A DNA stretch of 44,939 bases. It comes from a virus. The position numbers were made by a program, and so were the translations under genes. The notes beneath the pieces are model-generated. The model saw only the letters and a list, made by a program, of their open reading frames with translations. It had not been told where the DNA came from and searched no databases. This document shows positions 1,640 to 43,884 of this stretch, piece after piece (position 1 is the stretch's first letter; each line of letters starts with the position of its first letter). The stretch is from IMG/VR virus record IMGVR_UViG_3300045988_013489; one strand, written 5' to 3'.

Positions 1640-2131
1640 ATGAGTAAGATTCATCATTTTAAAGGATTCTCCGTAGTCGATGGAGATATGAAAATAAAGC
1701 TGAATATGAGCAGATTTTCCAAACAGTACCAAGAAGCCCAGTATCTCCTTGATGGAATGGTTATGGATAGCATGATAGAGTTTATGCCAATGATTTCGGG
1801 AGATTTTATTGACCGAACAAGAGTCAAAAGTACATCAATGCAAGGAACTGGATTTGTATGTGCAGCGGCAGAACCATATGGACGTTTTCTTTATTTTGGA
1901 AAAACCATGGTCGACCCTGCGACAGGTAGCACATGGGCAAGACACGATGCGGAAAAGGTTCTTGTGAGCCAGTACTCCGGTAAAACGAATGCAAAAGAAA
2001 ATCTTCAATATACAAAATCACCGCATACTCAGGCGCAAGCTGAATGGTTCGATGCCGCTAAACGAAAATACGGCAGTACATGGCTTCGCAAGGTAAAAGC
2101 ACAGGCAGGAGGTGGCAGACATGGCGGATAA
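1640..2131 (+). CDS. HK97 gp10-like / minor capsid-type neck protein
   Basis: The ATG at 1640 (MSKIHHF) directly follows the upstream stop, whereas the track start at 1619 overlaps it. FMPMISGDFIDRT...EPYGRFLYFGK resembles the gp10 family (..P..TG.L..S.....PYA..Y.G). Confidence 0.5.
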   Translation: MSKIHHFKGFSVVDGDMKIKLNMSRFSKQYQEAQYLLDGMVMDSMIEFMPMISGDFIDRTRVKSTSMQGTGFVCAAAEPYGRFLYFGKTMVDPATGSTWARHDAEKVLVSQYSGKTNAKENLQYTKSPHTQAQAEWFDAAKRKYGSTWLRKVKAQAGGGRHGG

Positions 2132-4230: not shown

Positions 4231-7083
4231 ATGGCTGCTGATGGCTCAGTCATTATTGATACCAGAATGGATACAACCGGTGTCCAAAATGGCGTATCGG
4301 CTATAAAACAGTCATTTAACGGACTTGGCAGCGTAGTAAAAAAAATAGGCGTACTGATTGGCGGAGCATTCGCGATTGGGAAACTGACGCAGTTCGGTAA
4401 GGAATGTATAGAACTTGGCTCAAATCTGGCAGAAGTGCAGAACGTGGTCGATGTTACATTTACAACCATGTCGGATAAGGTCAATGAATTTGCAAAGAAC
4501 GCAATGACCACTGCTGGTCTGTCGGAAACGATGGCGAAACAGTATGTCGGAACGTTCGGAGCAATGTCTAAGTCGTTCGGATTCTCAGAAGCACAAGCTT
4601 ACGACATGTCAACAGCTCTGACACAGCTGACTGGTGACGTAGCATCATTTTACAACATCAGTCAGGACTTGGCCTACATTAAGCTGAAATCAGTGTTTAC
4701 GGGCGAAACAGAAACGCTCAAGGACCTCGGCGTGGTAATGACCCAGTCGGCACTTGACCAGTATGCACTGGCTAATGGATACGGAAAAACCACATCCGCC
4801 ATGACTGAACAGGAGAAAGTGGCTCTTCGCTTGGCTTTTGTACAGAAACAGTTATCGGCTGCATCTGGTGATTTCGTCCGAACATCTGGCAGCTGGGCGA
4901 ACCAGGTAAGAGTAATGCAGTTACAGCTGCAATCTCTCAAGGCGACAGTTGGACAGGGATTAATCAATCTCTTCACTCCTGTTCTGAAAGTTATTAATAT
5001 CTTGCTCGGTAAGTTAGCAACTCTGGCAAATGCCTTCAAGTCATTTACGGAATTAATCACCGGAAAGAAATCATCTGGTCAGACAGGCGCGAGCGGCGCA
5101 GGTCTTGTCGGAACAGATGCAATGGCTGACACAGCCGACCAATATGGAAATGCTGCCGATAATGCCGAAAAGCTGGCGGATGCAACAAATGATACAGCGG
5201 ACGCAACCAAGAAAGCTACTAAGGCGGCAAAAGGATATCTTAGTCCTCTCGACGAAATAAATAATTACTCAACGGATAAAAGTGCAGATTCATCGCCAAA
5301 AGTACCGGGCGTAACCGGTGGACTTGCAGATCAGATGAAAGATGCTGTACAAAATGTTGATTACGGAAAAATGGCAGAGGGTGAGACAGTCCTTGACAAA
5401 ATTAGCAAATCAGCTGAAAAGCTCGCGAAGCTCCTTAAAAAGCTCTGGAAGCCATTTCAGGACGCTTGGAAAAAAGAGGGTAAGAATACTATTGATGCGG
5501 CACAGATTGCTCTATCTGGAATTGCGAAGCTTGCTAAGAGTGTAGGCAGGAGTCTCATGGAAGTCTGGACAAACGGTACAGGTACGACAATGCTTACAAC
5601 CATGCTAAGGATTGCTCAGAACGTGCTTAAAACTATTGGGAATATTGCATCCGGTTTTGCCGACGCGTGGAATAAGAACAATGTCGGAACGCAGATTATA
5701 CAGAACATCGCAGATGCTCTTGTGGTGGTTATGCAGTTCATTGAGAGGATTACCGCAGATACGGCAACGTGGGCGGCAAACTTAGATTTCTATCCGCTGT
5801 TAGAATCTATCAGTAATCTGACAAGTGCATTTGCACCAATTCTGGAATCCATTGGAAATGTTCTTGAATGGATTTACAATAACATCGTTCTTCCGATGTT
5901 GAAATGGGTTATTGAGGTAGGACTTCCGACAGTGATTAATTTAGTCGCAAAAGTAGCAACTTTTCTTGCTGATCATCAGTCGATTGTTGAAGCGTTCGGC
6001 GCAGCCCTAATCGGAGCGTTCGCGGCAGCAAAGATTGCAGAATTAGCATCGGGAGTTATCAAAAGTGTATCTGGAATAGCTACAGCCGCAAAAGGACTTA
6101 TCGCGTTAATGACTGGCACTGGCGGGATCATGGGTGGAATCAAGGCCATTGCGACAGCAATCGGCACTGGCGGGATTTTCGCGATCGCAGTCGGTGCTGC
6201 TATAGCAATCGGAGTTTTGCTGTACAAAAACTGGGATGAAATATGCGCGGCAGCAACAAAATTAAAAGACTGGGTTGTTGAAAAGACTCGCGCATTGTCA
6301 GAATCAGTAACACGTACATTAAGCAATTTAAAACAAAAAATAATTAACGTTTGGAATATTATTAAAACGTCAACATCTACTACTTGGAACTCAATCAAAA
6401 CGAAAGTTTCTGGATTATGGAACACTCTTAAAACCACGGCAAAAACAGTATTCGATGCAATTAAAACTAAAATTACAGGTATATGGGATAGCATAAAGAG
6501 TAAGACAACTCAGACATGGAACAATGTCACAAGTTTTATTTCTGATAAAGTGGAAGCAATAAGAAATGCCATCACAAGTAAATTTAATGCCGCCAGAGAT
6601 GCGGTAAAATCTGCGTTTGAGGGCATTGTAAATTTCATCAAAGCTCCAATTAATAAGGCAATTAGTATTGTTAACAATGCAGTTGGAATGATTAATAATG
6701 CAATTGGTGGAATCGAATCGGCTTTCTCCTTTGGGCCTTGGTCTGTTCCAACACCGTTTGGCACAAAGACTATTGGATTTCACGCAACATTTCCACGCGT
6801 CAGCACCATACCATATCTGGCCAGTGGCGCAGTTATTCCGCCAAGGTCAGAATTCCTTGCGGTATTAGGTGACCAGAAAAAAGGAAATAACCTGGAAGCA
6901 CCGGAAAGCCTGTTGCGTCAGATCGTCCGGGAAGAATCAGGGAAAGGACATGGAGATGGAAATACCTATAATGTTACAGTCAATGCATCCGGTAGAAAAC
7001 TTTTAGATATTATCATTGATGAAGCAGAACTTAGGAGACGTAGAAATGGCGGTCAGAATCCATTCTTATTAGGAGGTGTGTAA
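4231..7083 (+). CDS. Tape measure protein
   Basis: 950 aa, highly helical, with Gly/Ala-rich transmembrane-like segments (GGIMGGIKAIATAIGTGGIFAIAVGAAIAIG) and periodic W/K repeats. Canonical position. Confidence 0.9.
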   Translation: MAADGSVIIDTRMDTTGVQNGVSAIKQSFNGLGSVVKKIGVLIGGAFAIGKLTQFGKECIELGSNLAEVQNVVDVTFTTMSDKVNEFAKNAMTTAGLSETMAKQYVGTFGAMSKSFGFSEAQAYDMSTALTQLTGDVASFYNISQDLAYIKLKSVFTGETETLKDLGVVMTQSALDQYALANGYGKTTSAMTEQEKVALRLAFVQKQLSAASGDFVRTSGSWANQVRVMQLQLQSLKATVGQGLINLFTPVLKVINILLGKLATLANAFKSFTELITGKKSSGQTGASGAGLVGTDAMADTADQYGNAADNAEKLADATNDTADATKKATKAAKGYLSPLDEINNYSTDKSADSSPKVPGVTGGLADQMKDAVQNVDYGKMAEGETVLDKISKSAEKLAKLLKKLWKPFQDAWKKEGKNTIDAAQIALSGIAKLAKSVGRSLMEVWTNGTGTTMLTTMLRIAQNVLKTIGNIASGFADAWNKNNVGTQIIQNIADALVVVMQFIERITADTATWAANLDFYPLLESISNLTSAFAPILESIGNVLEWIYNNIVLPMLKWVIEVGLPTVINLVAKVATFLADHQSIVEAFGAALIGAFAAAKIAELASGVIKSVSGIATAAKGLIALMTGTGGIMGGIKAIATAIGTGGIFAIAVGAAIAIGVLLYKNWDEICAAATKLKDWVVEKTRALSESVTRTLSNLKQKIINVWNIIKTSTSTTWNSIKTKVSGLWNTLKTTAKTVFDAIKTKITGIWDSIKSKTTQTWNNVTSFISDKVEAIRNAITSKFNAARDAVKSAFEGIVNFIKAPINKAISIVNNAVGMINNAIGGIESAFSFGPWSVPTPFGTKTIGFHATFPRVSTIPYLASGAVIPPRSEFLAVLGDQKKGNNLEAPESLLRQIVREESGKGHGDGNTYNVTVNASGRKLLDIIIDEAELRRRRNGGQNPFLLGGV

Positions 7084-34385: not shown

Positions 34386-34412
34386 AGAGCTGGTATTTAC
34401 CGGCTCTTTTTT
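34386..34412 (+). terminator. Rho-independent terminator ending the early region
   Basis: Stem agagctgg/ccggctct, loop tattta, then tttttt. Confidence 0.7.
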
Positions 34413-34427
34413 AGCATAAAATTCCTC

Positions 34428-34470
34428 AAACATGTACCACAACTTTTCTGCTGACCTGTGATAGAATATA
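34428..34470 (+). promoter_or_regulatory. Late-promoter-like element, copy 1 (upstream of the terminase gene)
   Basis: aaacatgtaccacaactttt, 8 variable nt, then ctgtgatagaatata. Extended -10 TGaTAGAAT. The 20-mer is identical to 42743-42762 and has the same 34-nt offset to the -10. Confidence 0.5.
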
Positions 34471-34520: not shown

Positions 34521-36083
34521 TTGGATGTTGATAAGATGGCAAACGAGAAAAATTTAATACCAAATTCTGAACGAACTCCGAGCGAACTTCGAGAAATAAC
34601 AAAAAAAGGCGGTATTAAGTCGGGAGAAGTACGCCGTCAAAAAAAGACCCTTTCTGAATTAGCAAAAATGATAGCTGAAAATCCTGCCCCGGCTGCTGCA
34701 AAGAAGAAACTCGCGAAGATGGGAATATCTGACGAGGATGCAAATAACAATGCCTGTATTGCGGCTGCCGTGTATGATAAAGCCATAAAAGGTAATATGC
34801 AGGCGGTAGACAAATGGGAACAGTTAACAGCAGCTTCAAAAAATGATGATGAAAAATATTATCTGCCAGGCAGAGTACTTGGCAAGGCGTTTGTGGACAT
34901 TAACCGACAGATTAAACCTAACATTGAATATGTATTCGAGGGCGGTCGAGGTGGCCTGAAATCCTCTTTTGTAGCTTTTAAAATTGTTGAGCTTATCAAG
35001 AATAATCCTCAGATGCACGCCTGCATCACAAGACAGGTGGCCGGTACTCTGAAAGATTCTGTGTATGCTAACATGAAATGGGCTATCAACGAACTGGGAC
35101 TGATGGAAGAATTTGAATGTAAAGTTTCGCCACTTGAGATCAAGTATATTAAAACAGGGCAGACAATATACTTCCGTGGTCTGGACGATGAAACCAAGTT
35201 GAAATCTATTAAGCCGGAGTTTGGCTACATCGGAATCCTCTGGAAAGAAGAAAAAGATCAAATGAAGGGAGATGCCCAGGAACGTTCCGTTAATCAGTCA
35301 GTACTTCGTGGCGGTGATGAATCCTATGATTTTTCATCATATAATCCGCCAAAATCGAAATCAAACTGGGTAAACAGGATCAAGCTCACACCTAACCCGA
35401 AAAGGGTTATTCATCATTCGAGTTATCTGGAAGCCCCGGCGGAGTGGCTTGGACAGAAGTTTATTGACGATGCAGCGCATCTGAAAGAAATCAATCCAGA
35501 AGCCTATGAGCATGAATACCTGGGCGTTCCGAATGGTGACGGCGGAAATGTATTTGAATATCTGGAGATTAGAGATATCACAGACGAAGAGATCAGCCAC
35601 ATGGATCGCATTTTCGCTGGTGTAGATTATGGATGGTACCCGGATGCCTTCTGCTATCTCCGGACTTATTACGATTCTGCCAGAGAGAAAATATATCTGA
35701 TTGACGAATTGTATGTAAATAAATGGAGTAACTCCAAGACCGCTGATTGGATCAAGAAAAAAGGCTATGATGATTACACAATGATATGTGATTCTGCGGA
35801 ACCTAAGTCCGTGAATGATTTCCGGGATGCCGGACTTCCTGCCAGAGGAGCAATCAAAGGCCCGGGAAGTATCGAGTATGGTTTCAAATTCTTGCAAACA
35901 AAGACCATAGTCATTGATCCGAAGCGTACACCGAATGCATACAAGGAAATTACGGAATATGAGTACGATCGGGACAAAGAGGGAAATGTGATAAGTGGTT
36001 ATCCTGATGGAAACGATCATGCAATCTCGGCACTTAGGTATGCTTATGAGCCGTTATTTAACAGGAGGGGGTACAGTGCATAA
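34521..36083 (+). CDS. terL: Terminase large subunit (PBSX-type) with an N-terminal small-subunit-like extension
   Basis: YVFEGGRGGLKSSFVAFKI (Walker A variant) ... IYFRGLDDETKLKS. The first ~110 aa (KGGIKSGEVRRQKKT...KGNMQAVDKWEQL) look TerS-like. Start is TTG at 34521 or ATG at 34536. Confidence 0.85.
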   Translation: MDVDKMANEKNLIPNSERTPSELREITKKGGIKSGEVRRQKKTLSELAKMIAENPAPAAAKKKLAKMGISDEDANNNACIAAAVYDKAIKGNMQAVDKWEQLTAASKNDDEKYYLPGRVLGKAFVDINRQIKPNIEYVFEGGRGGLKSSFVAFKIVELIKNNPQMHACITRQVAGTLKDSVYANMKWAINELGLMEEFECKVSPLEIKYIKTGQTIYFRGLDDETKLKSIKPEFGYIGILWKEEKDQMKGDAQERSVNQSVLRGGDESYDFSSYNPPKSKSNWVNRIKLTPNPKRVIHHSSYLEAPAEWLGQKFIDDAAHLKEINPEAYEHEYLGVPNGDGGNVFEYLEIRDITDEEISHMDRIFAGVDYGWYPDAFCYLRTYYDSAREKIYLIDELYVNKWSNSKTADWIKKKGYDDYTMICDSAEPKSVNDFRDAGLPARGAIKGPGSIEYGFKFLQTKTIVIDPKRTPNAYKEITEYEYDRDKEGNVISGYPDGNDHAISALRYAYEPLFNRRGYSA

Positions 36084-36274: not shown

Positions 36275-37762
36275 ATGGGACTTATAACAACACTAAAAAG
36301 GTGGTTTAACATGATATTCAAAAAACAAGCCGAAGAGGATTTCAATATTCAGGCAGCAGAGTTTCCAGAGATGGAATCGCTGATTAATAAATGCGCAAAC
36401 ATATATCGAGGCGTTCCATACTGGCTAGATGATAAGGATAATATCAAGACGATCAATTTCGCAAAATCTGTCTGCTCAGAGACAGCTCGGCTCGCAACGC
36501 TGGCGATCGGTATTCAGATAGACGGTTCTGCAAGGGCTACGTGGCTTCAGGAGCAGATTGACAAGGTATATTTCCAGATCCGGCACTGGGTAGAATACGG
36601 ATGTGCCTATGGAACAGTATTTATCAAGCCAAACGGTGAGAGCCTTGACGTATTTACTCCGGCAGATGTGATGATTGTAGATTACGACAATCAGGAGATC
36701 AAAGGGATTATATTTAAGGATTCTTATACTGTCGGAAGAAAATACTATACACGGCTTGAATATCATAGATTTGTTGAGACCACAATAGACGGCGTGACAA
36801 CTTATCCGTACTACGTTTCTAATAGAGCCTATGTATCAAAATCCCCTCAGAGCATCGGAGATAAGATTGACCTTAAACAGACCAAATGGGCGGACCTCAT
36901 GGCAGATACACCGCCAATTCTCAAGGCAAATAGGGAGAAGCTGGACGGACCTCTGTATGGAGTTTTACGGACACCACAGGCGAACAATGTGGATATTAGC
37001 ACGCCACTGGGCTTACCAATATTCGCAGAAGCTATCGAAGAACTAAAAGACATTGACATTGCATACAGCCGTAATGCCGGAGAGATATTCGATTCTCAGA
37101 AGATTGTTCTGGCAGATGATAGACTGCTGATGCCAAACGGCGCACCTGTATCAGCTATGTCGCCACAGGGCATGGAGAACAGACGGAATGAGATGAGGTT
37201 ACCGCACTTTGTTAAGAATGTATTCGGACAGGACGCGAAAGAATTCTACCAAGAAATTAATCCAGTTCTCAATACAGATACCCGTATAGTCGGCATGAAT
37301 GCCATTCTAAACCAGATAGGATATAAGATTGGATTCTCTAACGGATATTTTGTTTTTAATGAAAAAACAGGTATGGTGACGGCTACGCAGGTAGAAGCAG
37401 ACGACAGACGGACAATTCAGTTTATCAAGGACGTTCGGGATAAGCTGGAGTGTTGTTTGAATGACACTATATACGCCTTAAATACATTTGCAGATTTATA
37501 TGGCATCGCACCAGATTCTAACTGGATTTACGACGAAAAGAAAAAGAAATATGTCCAGTATATAGTTAACTATGATTTTGGTGATTTTACATACAGCAGA
37601 GAAGAAGACAGGATAGCGTGGTACAGTTATGTAAATTCTGGACATGTGACATTTTGGCGTTATTTGGTGAAATTTTATGGATATACCGAAGAGGAAGCAA
37701 AAAAAATTTCACAAGAAGCCAAAGAGGAAAACAAAACGAGAGGTTTTTTTGAAGAAGAGTAA
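36275..37762 (+). CDS. Portal protein
   Basis: 495 aa, between the terminase and MuF-like genes. The N-terminus (YRGVPYWLDD...INFAKSVCSETARLA) resembles SPP1-type portal proteins. Confidence 0.75.
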   Translation: MGLITTLKRWFNMIFKKQAEEDFNIQAAEFPEMESLINKCANIYRGVPYWLDDKDNIKTINFAKSVCSETARLATLAIGIQIDGSARATWLQEQIDKVYFQIRHWVEYGCAYGTVFIKPNGESLDVFTPADVMIVDYDNQEIKGIIFKDSYTVGRKYYTRLEYHRFVETTIDGVTTYPYYVSNRAYVSKSPQSIGDKIDLKQTKWADLMADTPPILKANREKLDGPLYGVLRTPQANNVDISTPLGLPIFAEAIEELKDIDIAYSRNAGEIFDSQKIVLADDRLLMPNGAPVSAMSPQGMENRRNEMRLPHFVKNVFGQDAKEFYQEINPVLNTDTRIVGMNAILNQIGYKIGFSNGYFVFNEKTGMVTATQVEADDRRTIQFIKDVRDKLECCLNDTIYALNTFADLYGIAPDSNWIYDEKKKKYVQYIVNYDFGDFTYSREEDRIAWYSYVNSGHVTFWRYLVKFYGYTEEEAKKISQEAKEENKTRGFFEEE

Positions 37763-37828: not shown

Positions 37829-39115
37829 ATGTTAAGTCCGGAATATCTACGGCAAATCACAGAGGGCAGTGAGCAAATTGCTGAAGAATTGCACCAGTAT
37901 ATCATCTCTGAGATCGTGTCGCGGATGATGGCGAGAATCGGCAGAGGTGAGGAATATATTCTGACCAATGCCGATGCGTGGAGAATCAGAACGCTACAGG
38001 AATCCGGCGAACTGTTAGAGGACATTCTAGCGGAGCTGTCCAGATATACCAAACGCGAACGGCAGGAGCTTTTTGAAGCGTTTGAAGATGCCGGAATCAC
38101 TGCAATGGACTACGATGATAAGGTATATAAGGCGGCAGGACTAAGCCCTGTACCGCTCGAACAATCCCCGGCTATGATAAGACTCATGGAACGGAATATG
38201 CTTGCGACCATGGGCGAGTGGAAGAACTTCACAAGAACAACCGCAAGTGCCGCTCAGAGGCTCTATATCGAACAGTGTGACCTTGCGTATAATCATGTGA
38301 TGACTGGGGCAGTCGGGTATACACAAGCCATCAAAGAAGCGGTTAATAATGTCGTATCAGATGGTGTTACCGTCACATATCCATCTGGTAGAAAAGACAC
38401 GATTGAAACAGCAGTTGCACGTTCCGTCAGAACTGGCGTGGCGCAGGCGTGTGCTGATATTCAGTTGACAAGAATGAAAGAAATGGAATATGGTTTAGTA
38501 CTGACATCGGCGCATATAGGAAGCCGCCCAAGTCATGAAGTATGGCAAGGGCAGGTATTTTCCATAGACTGGGAAAAATTAAAAGAAATTAAGCCGGAGT
38601 TTTTTCAGGAACGAGATACACCGGAATATCGTAGAATGTTGGAGCAAAAAGCAAGCCACTATCCAGATTTTATTGAAAATTGTCATTATGGTGAAGCTGA
38701 TGGAATATGTGGAGTAAATTGCAGACATCATTTTTCAGTTTGGGTGGAAGGAATGCCGAATCCCTATACAGAACTATCGGCACAGGATAAAGCCGACAAA
38801 GGGAAGCAGTACGAAAAGGAACAGCGGCAACGTACTTATGAACGAAGAATCCGCAAAACAAAACGCGAAGTCCTTGGGCTGCAAGCAGGAGTCGACAATG
38901 CACCGAATGAAAAGGCAAAATTTGCATTACAGCAAGACCTTGACCGAAAGTCTTATCTTCTGCAGAAACAAAATGCTGCATACAAAGATTATTGCAAACA
39001 GAATGGCCTGAGGGAACTACAAGACCGCCTTATGATTGCAAAGTGGAATCGTCAGAACGCCGCAAAAGCCAGAGGAGCGGCAAAACGATATAAAACAGCA
39101 AAGGGGATTGACTGA
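37829..39115 (+). CDS. Minor head protein (MuF / SPP1 gp7-like)
   Basis: PEYLRQITEGSEQIAEELHQYI..., plus the conserved ...GICGVNCRHHF... segment typical of the MuF/minor capsid 2 family. Confidence 0.75.
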   Translation: MLSPEYLRQITEGSEQIAEELHQYIISEIVSRMMARIGRGEEYILTNADAWRIRTLQESGELLEDILAELSRYTKRERQELFEAFEDAGITAMDYDDKVYKAAGLSPVPLEQSPAMIRLMERNMLATMGEWKNFTRTTASAAQRLYIEQCDLAYNHVMTGAVGYTQAIKEAVNNVVSDGVTVTYPSGRKDTIETAVARSVRTGVAQACADIQLTRMKEMEYGLVLTSAHIGSRPSHEVWQGQVFSIDWEKLKEIKPEFFQERDTPEYRRMLEQKASHYPDFIENCHYGEADGICGVNCRHHFSVWVEGMPNPYTELSAQDKADKGKQYEKEQRQRTYERRIRKTKREVLGLQAGVDNAPNEKAKFALQQDLDRKSYLLQKQNAAYKDYCKQNGLRELQDRLMIAKWNRQNAAKARGAAKRYKTAKGID

Positions 39116-40853: not shown

Positions 40854-41636
40854 ATGGATGGAAATTTAACAGCATCAGATGTTGCTCTTTTAACTGGGAA
40901 CAACAGAAATGATGGAATGTTTGGCGGAGATGGCGCATGGTGGCTTATCGTGCTTTTCTTGTTTGTATTCTGCGGATGGGGAAACAACGGCTGGGGCAAT
41001 AATGGCAACGGCGGCGGATATGCAGCCACAGCAGCTACTCAGGCAGATATTCAGAGGGGATTTGACAATTCCGCAGTAATTAGCAAACTTGACGGAATCA
41101 ACAGTGGTCTCTGTGATGGTTTCTACGCCATGAATAATGGTATGCTTACCGGTTTTAACGGAATCAACACCAACATCATGCAGACTGGTTTTGGCATCCA
41201 GCAGGCTATTAATGCCGATACTGTAGCTAATATGCAGAATACAAACGCATTGCAGGCACAGCTTGCGAACTGCTGTTGTGAAACCAGGGAAGCTATCCAG
41301 GGCGTAAACTACAATATGGCACAGAATACCTGCGCATTGCAGAACACCATGAACAGTAACACAAGAGACATCATTGATAACCAGAATGCAAATGCGAGAG
41401 CTGTTTTAGATTATCTTTGCAATGAAAAGATTTCTAACTTGCAGGCTGAGAACAATGACCTCAGGCGTGCCGCTTCTCAGGATCGCCAGTCTGCACTTCT
41501 CACAACTGCAATGGCTTCTCAGACACAGCAGCTCATTAATGCGATTAATCCAGCGCCGATTCCGGCATATCAGGTTCCTAACCCGAACACATATTACGGA
41601 TGTGGATGCGGATGCAACACCGGATGCAATTGCTGA
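40854..41636 (+). CDS. Hypothetical membrane protein, Gly/Asn/Trp-rich with N/Q-rich repeats and a CGCGC tail
   Basis: WWLIVLFLFVFCGWGNNGWGNNGNGGG, periodic N/Q-rich helical region, CCC in the middle, C-terminal YYGCGCGCNTGCNC. Confidence 0.55.
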   Translation: MDGNLTASDVALLTGNNRNDGMFGGDGAWWLIVLFLFVFCGWGNNGWGNNGNGGGYAATAATQADIQRGFDNSAVISKLDGINSGLCDGFYAMNNGMLTGFNGINTNIMQTGFGIQQAINADTVANMQNTNALQAQLANCCCETREAIQGVNYNMAQNTCALQNTMNSNTRDIIDNQNANARAVLDYLCNEKISNLQAENNDLRRAASQDRQSALLTTAMASQTQQLINAINPAPIPAYQVPNPNTYYGCGCGCNTGCNC

Positions 41637-42169: not shown

Positions 42170-42180
42170 GAGGTGTGATT

Positions 42181-42735
42181 ATGAGAGACATTAAAGACTT
42201 ATGCGCAAGAATCGAAGACGAACTGTCCAAAATTGCTGATAGCGGGCTGACCACTGGAAATCTGGAAATGACATACAAGTTGATTGATATGTACAAAGAT
42301 ATCAAAAACACTCAATACTGGGACAAAAAGGTGGAATATTACAACGCTGTCCTTGATGAGATGCGCGGCGGATACAATGACGATTACAGCGAGCGTGGAA
42401 GAAAACGTGATAGCATGGGGAGATACAGCACAAATGACGGCAGAATGATGCCAGATTACGACCGGGGCAGTTCTTACGCCAGACGTGGTGAACATTATGT
42501 CAGAGGGCATTACAGCCGCTCTGACGGACGAGATGCTTATGACGACTATATGACACAGAAACAGAGCTATCGTTCCGGCAAATCTGAGGACTGCAAAAGA
42601 AAGATGCTTGCCGCATTGGAAGAACATCTGGACGAACTCACAACAGAAATGAGCGATATGTCCAAGGACGCAGAGTGCCGGGAGGAACGTGATCTTGTTA
42701 AAAGATACGTGGAAAAACTCCGGGATATGCTCTAA
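42181..42735 (+). CDS. Hypothetical protein with an R/D/Y/S-rich low-complexity centre
   Basis: ATG at 42181 follows taggaggtg. Helical ends flank DYSERGRKRDSMGRYSTNDGRMMPDYDRGSSYARRGEHYVRGHYSRSDGRDAYDDY. Confidence 0.55.
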   Translation: MRDIKDLCARIEDELSKIADSGLTTGNLEMTYKLIDMYKDIKNTQYWDKKVEYYNAVLDEMRGGYNDDYSERGRKRDSMGRYSTNDGRMMPDYDRGSSYARRGEHYVRGHYSRSDGRDAYDDYMTQKQSYRSGKSEDCKRKMLAALEEHLDELTTEMSDMSKDAECREERDLVKRYVEKLRDML

Positions 42736-42742
42736 TTGGCTA

Positions 42743-42785
42743 AAACATGTACCACAACTTTTTGAAGGTTCTGTGGTAAAATGTA
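42743..42785 (+). promoter_or_regulatory. Late-promoter-like element, copy 2 (upstream of the structured leader and the scaffold/capsid operon)
   Basis: aaacatgtaccacaactttt, 8 variable nt, then ctgtggtaaaatgta. Extended -10 TGgTAAAAT. Same architecture as 34428-34470. Confidence 0.5.
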
Positions 42786-42788
42786 TTC

Positions 42789-43251
42789 ATAGGGAAGATT
42801 CGTAAGCAGAAATGCTTGACATAGACATTTTTATTGCTTTCCTCCTTTCTTTAAGCAGATGCGTGTCCTTAATAGAAACAGGTTCGGGGTGGAATCTGGA
42901 GGTTGAAAAGCGGATGCAATTTCCGACACGTATCATTGCCGTTAGTGCATGGCGGCATACCTCCTTGTGAGCACATATAACTGAACAGTGGAATTCAACC
43001 CGTGCAGAGGTGTGCGACCGTATAGGCGGTGTTGACGTAGCCCGAAACGTCTCGTGTTTAGGCATAGCACGTTAAATACCTTGCTAACCCGGGAATCCGG
43101 GTTATGTGGAACCTATCGGCTATAGAACGAATATCTATAGATACAAGTTTTCCAGTTCGACTCTGGAAGCTCCACTTACCTCGCCAGTGGTCTAACTGGC
43201 TTAATCCATACCTGCGGCGGCAGGTCAATAAAAACGGCCAGGAGGATATAT
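42789..43251 (+). ncRNA. Candidate large structured RNA / leader with a tRNA-like 3' module
   Basis: About 460 nt with no credible ORF and local GC above its flanks. Perfect hairpins at 43034-43051, 43087-43102, 43120-43140, 43183-43200 and 43210-43225. T-arm-like tccag-ttcgact-ctgga (43151-43167) followed by agctccac. Confidence 0.4.
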
Positions 43252-43884
43252 ATGCAGAAACTTATTGACACATTAAAATCATTTGGAATTGAGATCCCGG
43301 AGGACAAACAGGCAGATGTGAAAAAGGCACTCTCTGAGCATTACAAGAATGCCAAAGAAGTGGCAAAAACCCTGTCAAAAGTTGAGGGAGAACGAGACAG
43401 CTGGAAAGAACGTGCCGAGACAGCAGAAGAAACCTTGAAAGGCTTTGACGGTATCGACCCGGCAAATGTTAAGACCGAGTTAGAGACTTGGAAACAGAAA
43501 GCGGCAGATGCAGAGAAAGAATTCAATGCGAAAATCTACGACCGTGATTTCTCAGATGCACTCAAAGCAGCACTCGACGATGTTAAGTTTTCCAGCGAAG
43601 CGGCAAAGAAGTCTGTTATGGCAGACATTAAAGAAGCAGGTCTTAAACTGAAAGACGGTAAAATTCTTGGATTAAATGACCTGATTGAACAGATGAAACA
43701 GTCTGATGCATCTGCTTTTGTAGATGAATCTCAGCAGCAGGCTCAGCAGAATCAGGCAAGATTTACCACTCATGTTGGACAGCAGCAGACACCTGGAAGT
43801 ATGACAAAGAAGGATATTGAAGCAATTAAAGACCCGTCTGAGAGACAGGCTGCAATTGCTCAGAATATTCAGTTATTCCAGTGA
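43252..43884 (+). CDS. Scaffolding protein (Phage_GP20-like)
   Basis: 210 aa, acidic coiled-coil, immediately upstream of the capsid gene. Contains KIYDRDFSDALKAAL...KDGKILGLNDLIEQMKQSD. Confidence 0.8.
   Translation: MQKLIDTLKSFGIEIPEDKQADVKKALSEHYKNAKEVAKTLSKVEGERDSWKERAETAEETLKGFDGIDPANVKTELETWKQKAADAEKEFNAKIYDRDFSDALKAALDDVKFSSEAAKKSVMADIKEAGLKLKDGKILGLNDLIEQMKQSDASAFVDESQQQAQQNQARFTTHVGQQQTPGSMTKKDIEAIKDPSERQAAIAQNIQLFQ

Follow-up and report, generated by a model that had tools for sequence, protein, structure and literature searches.

A mosaic of RNA modules with RAGATH-21 and a tRNA relic ahead of the scaffold gene of a phage

Results and discussion

A mosaic gap ahead of the scaffold gene

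The viral DNA analysed here, IMG/VR virus record IMGVR_UViG_3300045988_013489 (44,939 nt, hereafter the window), reads as a phage genome with all its head genes on the plus strand, and it holds a gap of 516 nt between the stop of a 186-aa open reading frame (ORF, 42175-42735) at 42735 and the ATG of the scaffold gene at 43252. We found this gap to be a mosaic of at least four modules differing in conservation, one of them the catalogued RNA RAGATH-21, and not one hairpin-dense RNA of 460 nt. Along the plus strand it is made up of a promoter-like element, a leader ending in a CCUCCUUUC box, RAGATH-21, a hairpin with a second box (ACCUCCUU), a lineage-specific spacer, a slot with conserved flanks, a two-hairpin element and the ribosome-binding site (RBS) of the scaffold gene (Table 1). 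Modules, order, conservation and strand are direct observations, and we hold this module composition of the leader with high confidence. We further think it probable that the phage is a Lachnospiraceae-type gut phage, and that the gap is the untranslated leader of its scaffold/major-capsid operon and at the same time a small RNA-gene island.

The gap is the largest between long plus-strand ORFs of the window, as had been remarked in an earlier note made from the letters alone. That note suggested a structured RNA, possibly a long leader, and both terms proved apt. There is an Rfam match together with covariation (below), and the gap (42736-43251) folds with a z-score of -3.63, none of 100 shuffles folding as well. 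The excess structure is confined to three pieces, namely RAGATH-21 (42858-42934), a tRNA relic (43106-43176) and the remaining stretch up to the scaffold gene (43177-43251), and the rest is ordinary. The five hairpins listed in the note are all where it had placed them, and its wording hairpin-dense is right for the gap as a whole but hides an uneven distribution, with the gacgt/acgtc hairpin lying in an ordinary stretch.

ORFs of 52-92 aa are present on both strands of the gap. The longest, a 92-aa ORF on the minus strand, is not conserved and contains 1- and 2-nt indels in near-identical relatives, and the plus-strand ORFs are likewise hit by 1-2-nt indels in close relatives. Inside RAGATH-21 there is a GGAGG-N11-AUG, and the conserved peptide from there is MQFP only, because the codons that follow form the covarying P1 strand. 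Coding in the gap is excluded.

RAGATH-21 and its relatives

RAGATH-21 (RF03097) was the sole Rfam match above the gathering threshold in the whole window, with 86.9 bits (gathering score 70.3; E = 9e-16) over model positions 1-76 of 76. In its fold the stem P1 closes a multi-stem junction with three hairpins, P2, P3 and P4, and the window copy agrees with the family in all four helices and in the invariant junction nucleotides, without any difference in the core. With a covariance model built from 12 sequences we aligned 59 distinct homologues, in which 96.4% of the helix cells are paired and compensatory changes occur in 16 of 23 pairs (8/10 in P1, 7/7 in P2). This covariation was reached by none of 500 shuffles and collapsed when the partners were shifted by 1-3 columns. 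P3 and P4 hardly vary; the search pattern fixed their sequence, and they were thus not free to vary.

The G-U pairs of RAGATH-21 are frequent, with U-G in P3 in 56 of the 59 sequences, and as they would be mismatches on the other strand they place the RNA on the plus strand. The folding z-score is -3.34 on this strand versus -1.37 on the other. While the helices covary, the junction and loop nucleotides are almost invariant, among them the junction strings GGAGG (42898-42902) and AGAAA (42874-42878). The string ggggtggaatctggagg at 42886-42902, which had been likened to the 5' end of transfer-messenger RNA (tmRNA), is indeed there, and it consists of the P2 loop, the P2 3' strand and the P2/P3 junction. 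Being part of RAGATH-21 it cannot be the acceptor partner of aagctcc, as the earlier note had proposed.

We take RAGATH-21 to come from the comparative-genomics set of Weinberg et al. 2017, and its function to be unknown. Our literature search found no paper mentioning RAGATH-21, and the word RAGATH is absent from the main text of the 2017 paper.

A blastn search against phage records returned uncultured human-gut phages that span the region at 74-97% identity. A scan for the conserved RAGATH-21 3' core gave at least 120 loci in viral contigs, and a scan of species-representative genomes gave 23 exact-pattern matches, 15 of them with the full motif. Most of these 15 genomes are isolates or metagenome-assembled genomes (MAGs) of Lachnospiraceae and other Clostridia; the full-motif genomes include Blautia sp. 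MSJ-19 (contig NZ_JAHLQA010000034.1, with RAGATH-21 at 5425-5500 of locus L138), Enterocloster, Dorea, Faecalimonas, Marvinbryantia, Mediterraneibacter, Eisenbergiella and Lachnoclostridium. We suspect that full-motif MAGs labelled Bacteroidales, Odoribacter and Akkermansia are mis-binned.

Throughout the viral loci and the Lachnospiraceae genomes the order is constant: an upstream ORF, RAGATH-21, a variable spacer, the PF06810 scaffold gene (205-263 aa in relatives) and the capsid gene (285-396 aa). In the closer relatives the upstream ORF is homologous to the 186-aa ORF. The scaffold ATG lies at a distance from the RAGATH-21 start of 394 nt in the window and ~170, 316-398, ~500, ~585, ~630, ~690, 756, 835, 1026, 1118 or 1307 nt elsewhere, and this range occurs even among phages whose flanking proteins are >95% identical. 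A Ruminococcus MAG (locus L132, 690-1570 in RAGATH orientation) holds a decayed prophage with internal deletions in the scaffold and capsid genes, in which RAGATH-21, a tRNA and the two-hairpin element are intact. What the evidence establishes is limited to RAGATH-21 being a plus-strand RNA structure tied to the starts of scaffold/capsid operons.

CCUCC boxes on both sides of RAGATH-21

Upstream of P1, at 11-18 nt (extremes 8-20), a CCTCC box is found in 84 of 92 distinct contexts, mostly in the form CCUCCUUUC, with 0.009 expected by chance per 40 nt. The remaining 8 contexts have one-base variants of this box 1. On the other side a hairpin followed by (A)CACCUCCUU lies 17-43 nt (once 61 nt) past P1. 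This box 2 arrangement is exact in 50 of the 92 contexts and has one-base variants in further ones, and the sequence of its hairpin differs among lineages. It is absent from the loci of the GP20-b type described below.

Both boxes are identical in sequence to the anti-Shine-Dalgarno tail of 16S rRNA. Across the base of P2, the GGAGG and AGAAA junction strings of RAGATH-21 complement box 1, and the invariant Shine-Dalgarno sequence of the scaffold gene, AGGAGGAU, does so as well; since all these partners are invariant, covariation cannot choose between them. Duplexes of box 1 with the scaffold RBS were predicted at -9 to -18 kcal/mol, energies that carry no information, since every CCUCC can pair with every Shine-Dalgarno sequence. 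We also asked whether box 1 might serve a minus-strand gene as its Shine-Dalgarno sequence and rejected this, as no start codon at a suitable distance is conserved; the minus-strand mini-ORFs nearby differ in frame and length between lineages.

These features allow another explanation of the region, in which RAGATH-21 and the CCUCC boxes form a cis-regulatory leader for the scaffold and capsid genes (riboswitch-like, protein-binding, or antiterminating like HK022 put), box 1 pairs alternately with the GGAGG (and AGAAA) junctions or with the scaffold Shine-Dalgarno sequence, and the tRNA slot is passive cargo. It would fit that RAGATH-21 is always co-oriented upstream of the PF06810 scaffold gene, at 79 to ~1230 nt and whatever lies between, that near-invariant junctions and loops combined with covarying helices are as in ligand- or protein-binding RNAs, and that box 1, with its complementarity to both candidate partners, recurs so widely. 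The polymerase must moreover cross a long structured untranslated stretch, up to ~1.3 kb where the slot holds a ROOL RNA (below), to reach essential genes, and antitermination leaders are used for long untranslated structured stretches in rRNA operons and put systems. However, there is no terminator or expression platform at a fixed distance after RAGATH-21, box 1 does not covary with any (invariant) partner, its UUUC extension is missing in GP20-b-type loci, and one-base variants of box 1 and of GGAGG are uncompensated. If the slot tRNAs are processed, long-range control of translation would in addition be possible only before cleavage. We hold such a cis-acting leader to be somewhat unlikely.

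The spacer, the cassette slot and the tRNA relic

The middle of the gap (42935-43105) has no excess structure. Among nine distinct close relatives none of its 47 predicted pairs has a compensatory change, and a wider alignment is impossible since the sequence of other lineages is unrelated; this includes the spacer at 42967-43059, whose place is taken by unrelated sequence in other lineages. The gacgt/acgtc hairpin of the spacer is a weak terminator-like match. The 5' flank of the slot follows, which is present in all slot-type loci and is 94-96% identical even in loci where the neighbouring sequence is unrelated. Other lineages have a different hairpin at the site of the flank hairpin, e.g. 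GCGGGA/TCCCGC in L132 and CCGGC/GCCGG in L005.

The slot has the layout …AACCCGGGAATCCGGGTTA, cassette, TTACCYYGCCAGTGG…, with cassettes of 69-984 nt, and it is never empty. In sister phages it contains 1-3 tRNA genes, and in three loci tRNAs together with a full ROOL RNA; according to ARAGORN and Rfam nearly all relatives have tRNA genes in the spacer, on the same strand. The commonest is Met-CAT, and Tyr, Ile-TAT, Gln, Ser, Asn, Val, Thr, Ala and Leu are also represented. ROOL (RF03087, 375-385 bits) lies between tRNA-Met and tRNA-Ser in L057, L062 and L084. The phages carrying it, with ROOL in the slot of the capsid-operon leader, are otherwise ~96% identical to the window. No ROOL was found in the window itself by the Rfam search, in which the model match is ~570 nt.

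A number of slot tRNAs (L045, L070, L118, L120, L082/L011, L066, L001, L012 and others) have near-same acceptor, D and T arms (GGAATGTAGCTCAG…TTCGATTCCTGCCATTCCG) and varying anticodon arms, which are Met-CAT, Ile-TAT, Leu-TAA or truncated. It seems as if the anticodon arm of slot tRNAs turns over in place. The tRNA-Tyr-like slot genes of L146, L065, L073 and L028 have an unusual T loop, UGCAACU, with G at position 55.

The cassette of the window is a 71-nt degenerate tRNA. Near-identical phages differ from the window only by a swapped ~71-nt cassette, and tRNA-Asn(GTT) occupies the homologous slot in L019, L033, L061, L078 and L105, with three further versions in others. The T-arm look-alike followed by agctccac, which the earlier note had pointed out and read as a possible degenerate tmRNA/tRNA-like element, is therefore a true tRNA remnant: elsewhere tRNA-Asn(GTT) fills this slot, and the register matches that of the relatives. 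This register is strict, as the T-arm/acceptor unit ends 1 nt before the two-hairpin element in 54 of 55 distinct contexts, the window included. Acceptor and T arm are also kept in the cassettes of L092, L082/L011, L072 and L089, though these were rejected by ARAGORN.

In other respects the relic is far from a tRNA. It has no D arm, as only 6 nt (TCGGCT) without a D stem-loop lie between positions 8-9 and the 7-bp hairpin in the place of the anticodon arm, and the loop of that hairpin (ACGAATA) has C at position 33 and T at position 37, so that U33 and purine-37 are both missing. The cassette occurs in 40 contigs with two main alleles; 5 of 7 acceptor pairs form in the window allele and 6 of 7 in the major allele (~31/40). 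ARAGORN with default settings called no tRNA or tmRNA gene in the window, and among the Rfam matches to 42600-43400 with E-values up to 10 neither tRNA nor tmRNA appeared. With the threshold set to 80%, ARAGORN proposed a poor tRNA-Phe(gaa) model with a mispaired acceptor; the numerous poor models from its relaxed and mitochondrial modes overlap one another on both strands, and we do not trust them. A permissive Rfam search returned noise only (mir-344, SAM_alpha, PyrR208 and ZMP-ZTP at 11-19 bits).

As tRNA and tmRNA do (RF00005, RF00023), the relic has a 5-bp T stem, a TTCGACT loop, a 7-nt acceptor strand and a discriminator; it differs from them in lacking a detector call, a D arm, U33, purine-37 and a tag frame, for which ARAGORN was the only search made. 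With no call by ARAGORN or Rfam, we reject the tmRNA reading that the earlier note had considered. In our view there is next to no chance that a tmRNA, a functional tRNA or a small protein is encoded here. The canonical T loop with its acceptor-like strand, the ORFs on both strands and the GGAGG-N11-AUG could be cited for it, yet the detectors are silent, the 5' partner proposed for the acceptor belongs to RAGATH-21, indels break the ORFs, and the peptide within RAGATH-21 is conserved for four residues.

One may also ask whether the region apart from RAGATH-21 is mostly decaying here and functionless, a recombination hot spot with a dead tRNA and filler. The middle 170 nt have neither excess structure nor covariation, the relic fails all tRNA tests, with an extra acceptor mismatch in the window allele, and the spacer varies from ~170 to 1307 nt among phages with >95% identical flanking proteins. 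Decay would on the other hand not account for slot flanks that are 94-96% identical across lineages, for a covarying two-hairpin element, or for a slot which is never empty and in which several independently broken 'tRNAs' keep acceptor and T arm in register. We consider it very unlikely.

The two-hairpin element before the scaffold gene

Directly after the slot comes an element with two hairpins (in our notation block C), which has the consensus UACCYYG, hairpin 1, CUNAAUCCA, hairpin 2, UUAAUAA…ACG…, AGGAGGAU. It is conserved in every slot-type locus, distant Lachnospiraceae prophages included, and AGGAGGAT was found in all slot-type lineages examined. Over 27 distinct homologues 96.9% of its cells are paired and 7 of 12 pairs show compensatory changes, a covariation score that none of 500 shuffles reached. 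Homologues with covariation are thus at hand both for RAGATH-21 and for the two 3' hairpins of the earlier note's list.

The element had no Rfam match up to E=10, and no match to GP20-b (RF03003) was obtained in 43165-43275. GP20-b is a candidate cis-regulatory element upstream of GP20/PF06810 scaffold genes, and in 11 short-spacer loci it follows RAGATH-21 directly, with no tRNA (40.9 bits in L034 and 39.4 bits in L035, gathering score 36.2). The two are alike in their site before the scaffold RBS and after RAGATH-21 or a tRNA, and in having two hairpins and an A-rich stretch, whereas the window element has no model match and has linkers of its own (UACCYYG, CUNAAUCCA, UUAAUAA). It looks like an uncatalogued counterpart of GP20-b.

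In the short-spacer lineage (L034, L035, L046, L064, L074, L125 and related loci) we further observed a doubled box, CCUCCCUCC, and a strong terminator-like hairpin with a U-tract ~25 nt upstream of RAGATH-21. Just ahead of this hairpin a GCCAGAC/GCCAGTC string is repeated.

The lone exception to the register is L135, a Faecalimonas MAG, in which the two-hairpin element follows RAGATH-21 itself. There RAGATH-21 (1808-1891, minus strand) reads …GATGTGTGCA up to the junction and the element continues as TTACCCCG…, at the usual position of the tRNA 3' end. P1 has 9 bp in this locus and the terminal A is unpaired.

The promoter-like element and the 5' leader

We confirmed the duplicated promoter-like element reported by the earlier note. 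The 20-mer AAACATGTACCACAACTTTT is repeated exactly, at 42743-42762 and 34428-34447, and both copies are followed, exactly 11 nt on, by an extended -10 sequence, TGGTAAAAT at 42774-42782 and TGATAGAAT at the other site. Exact matches to ACATGTACCACAAC are found at only these two promoter-like sites. The element is conserved in relatives, and other lineages have analogous ATGTnnnnACAAC and TGnTAnAAT elements upstream of RAGATH-21. It has no -35 hexamer and was detected only through the exact repeat; a promoter scan of the gap found no sigma-70-like promoter. We infer its promoter function and its late timing, the two copies marking two putative late transcription units, and a transcription start is predicted near 42789. 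The second copy lies ~65 nt upstream of the large terminase ORF, within a segment (34390-34456) where a terminator-like hairpin, gagagctgg…ccggctc, and a T run come first and the 20-nt box and TGATAGAAT follow.

In the ROOL-bearing L057 sigma-70-like sites were not above chance (2 against 3.4 expected). One is on the opposite strand, and the plus-strand one has a -10 that ends at the first tRNA base.

Proposed processing of the leader

We propose that the whole stretch would be transcribed together with the head genes from a promoter near 42789, and that host RNase P and RNase Z would cut it at the tRNA-shaped element, whose kept acceptor/T-arm minihelix is what these enzymes need. Cutting would split the transcript into a 5' RNA of ~320 nt, with RAGATH-21 and both anti-Shine-Dalgarno-like boxes, and a scaffold/capsid mRNA. 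The latter would then start a few bases before hairpin 1 and be stabilised by the two-hairpin element. RNase P and RNase Z release tRNAs from longer transcripts and both accept acceptor/T-arm minihelices, and 5'-proximal hairpins stabilise mRNAs in Bacillus-type bacteria.

In relatives the leader would be severed at the slot, because the slot tRNAs must be cut out by the two enzymes. In the window it is most likely that the relic still works as a processing signal, as judged from the kept minihelix and the fixed register of the downstream element to the cut site. The processing model for this particular phage we regard as possible, with a chance somewhat below even.

Several points weigh against it. 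Promoter use, co-transcription and cleavage are all steps that we infer. tRNA processing is not universal to RAGATH-21, since there is no tRNA in the 11 short-spacer loci, and the terminator-like U-tract hairpin ~25 nt upstream of RAGATH-21 in such loci is unexplained by a promoter-proximal leader. With two mismatches in its 7-bp acceptor stem and its failure in all tRNA detectors, the relic may be a simple pseudogene that is no longer a processing substrate, and selection on its shape cannot be tested because the 40 copies are nearly identical.

A rival reading would see the 5' part as a free small RNA acting in trans, in which a tRNA-shaped RAGATH-21 is flanked by mimics of the 16S tail (CACCUCCUU). 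As a decoy or sponge it would take up Shine-Dalgarno sequences, or else factors or defence nucleases whose target is tRNA or the 3' end of 16S, and it would sit beside tRNAs that replace host tRNAs cut by defence systems. The boxes do match the 16S anti-Shine-Dalgarno tail, each after a hairpin; this resemblance is not specific, however, as any sequence that pairs with Shine-Dalgarno sequences converges on it. RAGATH-21 is 76 nt long, its closing stem carries three hairpins, P4 directly adjoins the 3' strand of P1, and the invariant 7-nt P4 loop (UGCAAUU) begins with the same five bases as UGCAACU, the T loop of the tRNA-Tyr-like slot genes. ARAGORN at a relaxed threshold folds it as a cloverleaf, and in L135 it takes the tRNA position before the two-hairpin element. 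Slot tRNAs that keep their acceptor, D and T arms while anticodon arms differ or are broken recall escape from anticodon nucleases (PMC10264068, PMC11555353). Against this reading, RAGATH-21 has no Rfam tRNA match, P4 is of only 3 bp with an A-U closing pair, contiguous P1 of 9-11 bp gives 12-14 bp for P1 and P4 together instead of the fixed 12 bp of tRNA, and L135 is a single locus. On balance we find a trans-acting RNA quite unlikely. RAGATH-21 as a strict 12-bp mimic of the tRNA minihelix was rejected, P1 of 9, 10 and 11 bp being similarly frequent, with no fixed length.

We also speculate, and consider it unlikely, that RAGATH-21 is itself a tRNA-derived, tRNA-shaped RNA (76 nt, lacking a D arm, its T-loop-like P4 stacked on P1) which is processed from the leader like a tRNA, the locus being an island of translation-apparatus mimics. 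If so, an RNase P cut at the 5' end of RAGATH-21 would leave a short leader RNA with the 3' tail …CCUCCUUUCUUUAAGCA, which would mimic the hairpin and anti-Shine-Dalgarno tail of 16S rRNA, and a second such mimic would follow RAGATH-21. A tRNA mimic, 16S-tail mimics, swappable tRNAs and the ROOL nanocage RNA would then be combined in one island, serving translational take-over or as decoys against defence nucleases that attack tRNA or rRNA.

Neighbouring genes and feature coordinates

The head genes and the modules of the gap are listed in Table 1. Between them lies an ORF (40854-41636, phrog_16490, function unknown) whose product has a high content of Asn, Gly and Gln, a CCC motif in mid-protein and a Cys-rich tail, …YYGCGCGCNTGCNC.

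Table 1. Coordinates of head genes and of the modules in the gap (positions of the window; ROOL rows, positions of the respective locus). z, folding z-score.
Feature	Position	Strand	Remarks
Large terminase	34521-36083	+	gene assignment
Portal	36275-37762	+	gene assignment
Minor head protein	37829-39115	+	gene assignment
Promoter-like element	42743-42782	+	20-nt box 42743-42762, 11-nt spacer, extended -10 TGGTAAAAT 42774-42782
5' leader	42789-42857	+	hairpin AAGCA-GAAA-TGCTT 42804-42817, U-rich tract, box 1 CCTCCTTTC 42841-42849
5' leader, as folded	42788-42857	+	z = -0.95
RAGATH-21 (RF03097)	42858-42934	+	z = -3.34
Middle stretch	42935-43105	+	z = -1.10; 31/200 shuffles fold as well
Second-box hairpin and box 2	42937-42957; 42959-42966	+	TGCCG...CGGCA, then ACCTCCTT
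Lineage-specific spacer	42967-43059	+	gacgt/acgtc hairpin 43034-43051, then TCGTGTTT
5' flank of slot	43060-43105	+	GCATAGCACGTTAAATACCTTGCTAA, hairpin AACCCGG-GAAT-CCGGGTT 43086-43103, TA
tRNA relic (cassette slot)	43106-43176	+	degenerate tRNA, 71 nt; z = -2.86
Relic acceptor 5' strand	43107-43113	+	TGGAACC, then TA at tRNA positions 8-9
Relic hairpin	43120-43140	+	ctataga/tctatag, 7 bp, loop ACGAATA, in place of anticodon arm
Relic T arm	43151-43167	+	tccag-TTCGACT-ctgga; 5-bp T stem, canonical loop
Relic acceptor 3' strand	43168-43174	+	AGCTCCA; discriminator C 43175
Two-hairpin stretch to scaffold gene	43177-43251	+	z = -2.56
Two-hairpin pre-RBS element (block C)	43177-43239	+	begins T-TACCTCG
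Hairpin 1	43183-43200	+	gccagt/actggc, then CTTAATCCAT
Hairpin 2	43210-43225	+	acctgc/gcaggt, then CAATAAAAACGGCC
Shine-Dalgarno of scaffold gene	43240-43245	+	AGGAGG; ATG 43252
Scaffold gene	43252-43884	+	PF06810 Phage_scaffold 3.5e-23; phrog_194
Major capsid (major head protein) gene	from 43962	+	phrog_544
ROOL, L057	4213-4771		full-length
ROOL, L062	8634-9194		full-length
ROOL, L084	7044-7602	-	full-length

Relation to known systems

ROOL and GOLLD RNAs sit near phage tRNA islands and are possibly co-transcribed with them (PMC5737381, PMC12286853), and phage tRNAs have been connected with the evasion of defences that cut tRNA (PMC10264068, PMC11555353). The relatives resemble these islands in the co-oriented tRNAs of their slot and in the ROOL of three loci, whereas the slot of the window has only a relic, with no ROOL and no working tRNA, and the island is here a single slot in the scaffold/capsid leader and not a separate tRNA region.

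A second comparison is with tRNA-like processing signals. The gap shares with them a tRNA-shaped element in a longer transcript whose acceptor/T-arm minihelix is kept, other tRNA features being dispensable. It differs in that the acceptor stem of the window has two mismatches and that cleavage is putative. Such signals include mitochondrial tRNA punctuation, the mascRNA of MALAT1 and the tRNA cluster of phage T4 with its stable RNAs. The T4 cluster is also similar in that small stable RNAs of unknown function are encoded together with phage tRNAs.

RAGATH-21 as a family is already catalogued, and here it lies beside a tRNA pseudogene in a phage tRNA slot. Outside its 76-nt model are the upstream box, the frequent downstream box, the position relative to the scaffold gene and the tRNA/ROOL slot. 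The CCUCC box tied to RAGATH-21 and its fixed place at the head of PF06810 scaffold operons may be new, though the original RAGATH-21 supplement may already note some of this. Possibly new as well are the single swappable slot common to tRNAs and ROOL and the covarying two-hairpin element locked to the tRNA 3' end.

Conclusion

For annotation, the gap is neither empty nor a tmRNA. The locus and its relatives place RAGATH-21 and ROOL, both catalogued without known function, in one putative transcription unit, with ROOL and tRNAs as interchangeable cargo in one slot a few hundred bases downstream of RAGATH-21. Natural near-isogenic phages differ only in what this slot holds, be it a relic, one tRNA, two tRNAs or tRNAs and ROOL, and the cultured Blautia sp. 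MSJ-19 carries a related prophage, which together provide material for studying what these RNAs do. The CCUCC box and the register to the tRNA end are leads on structured RNA genes that would be embedded in, and processed from, an essential late mRNA.

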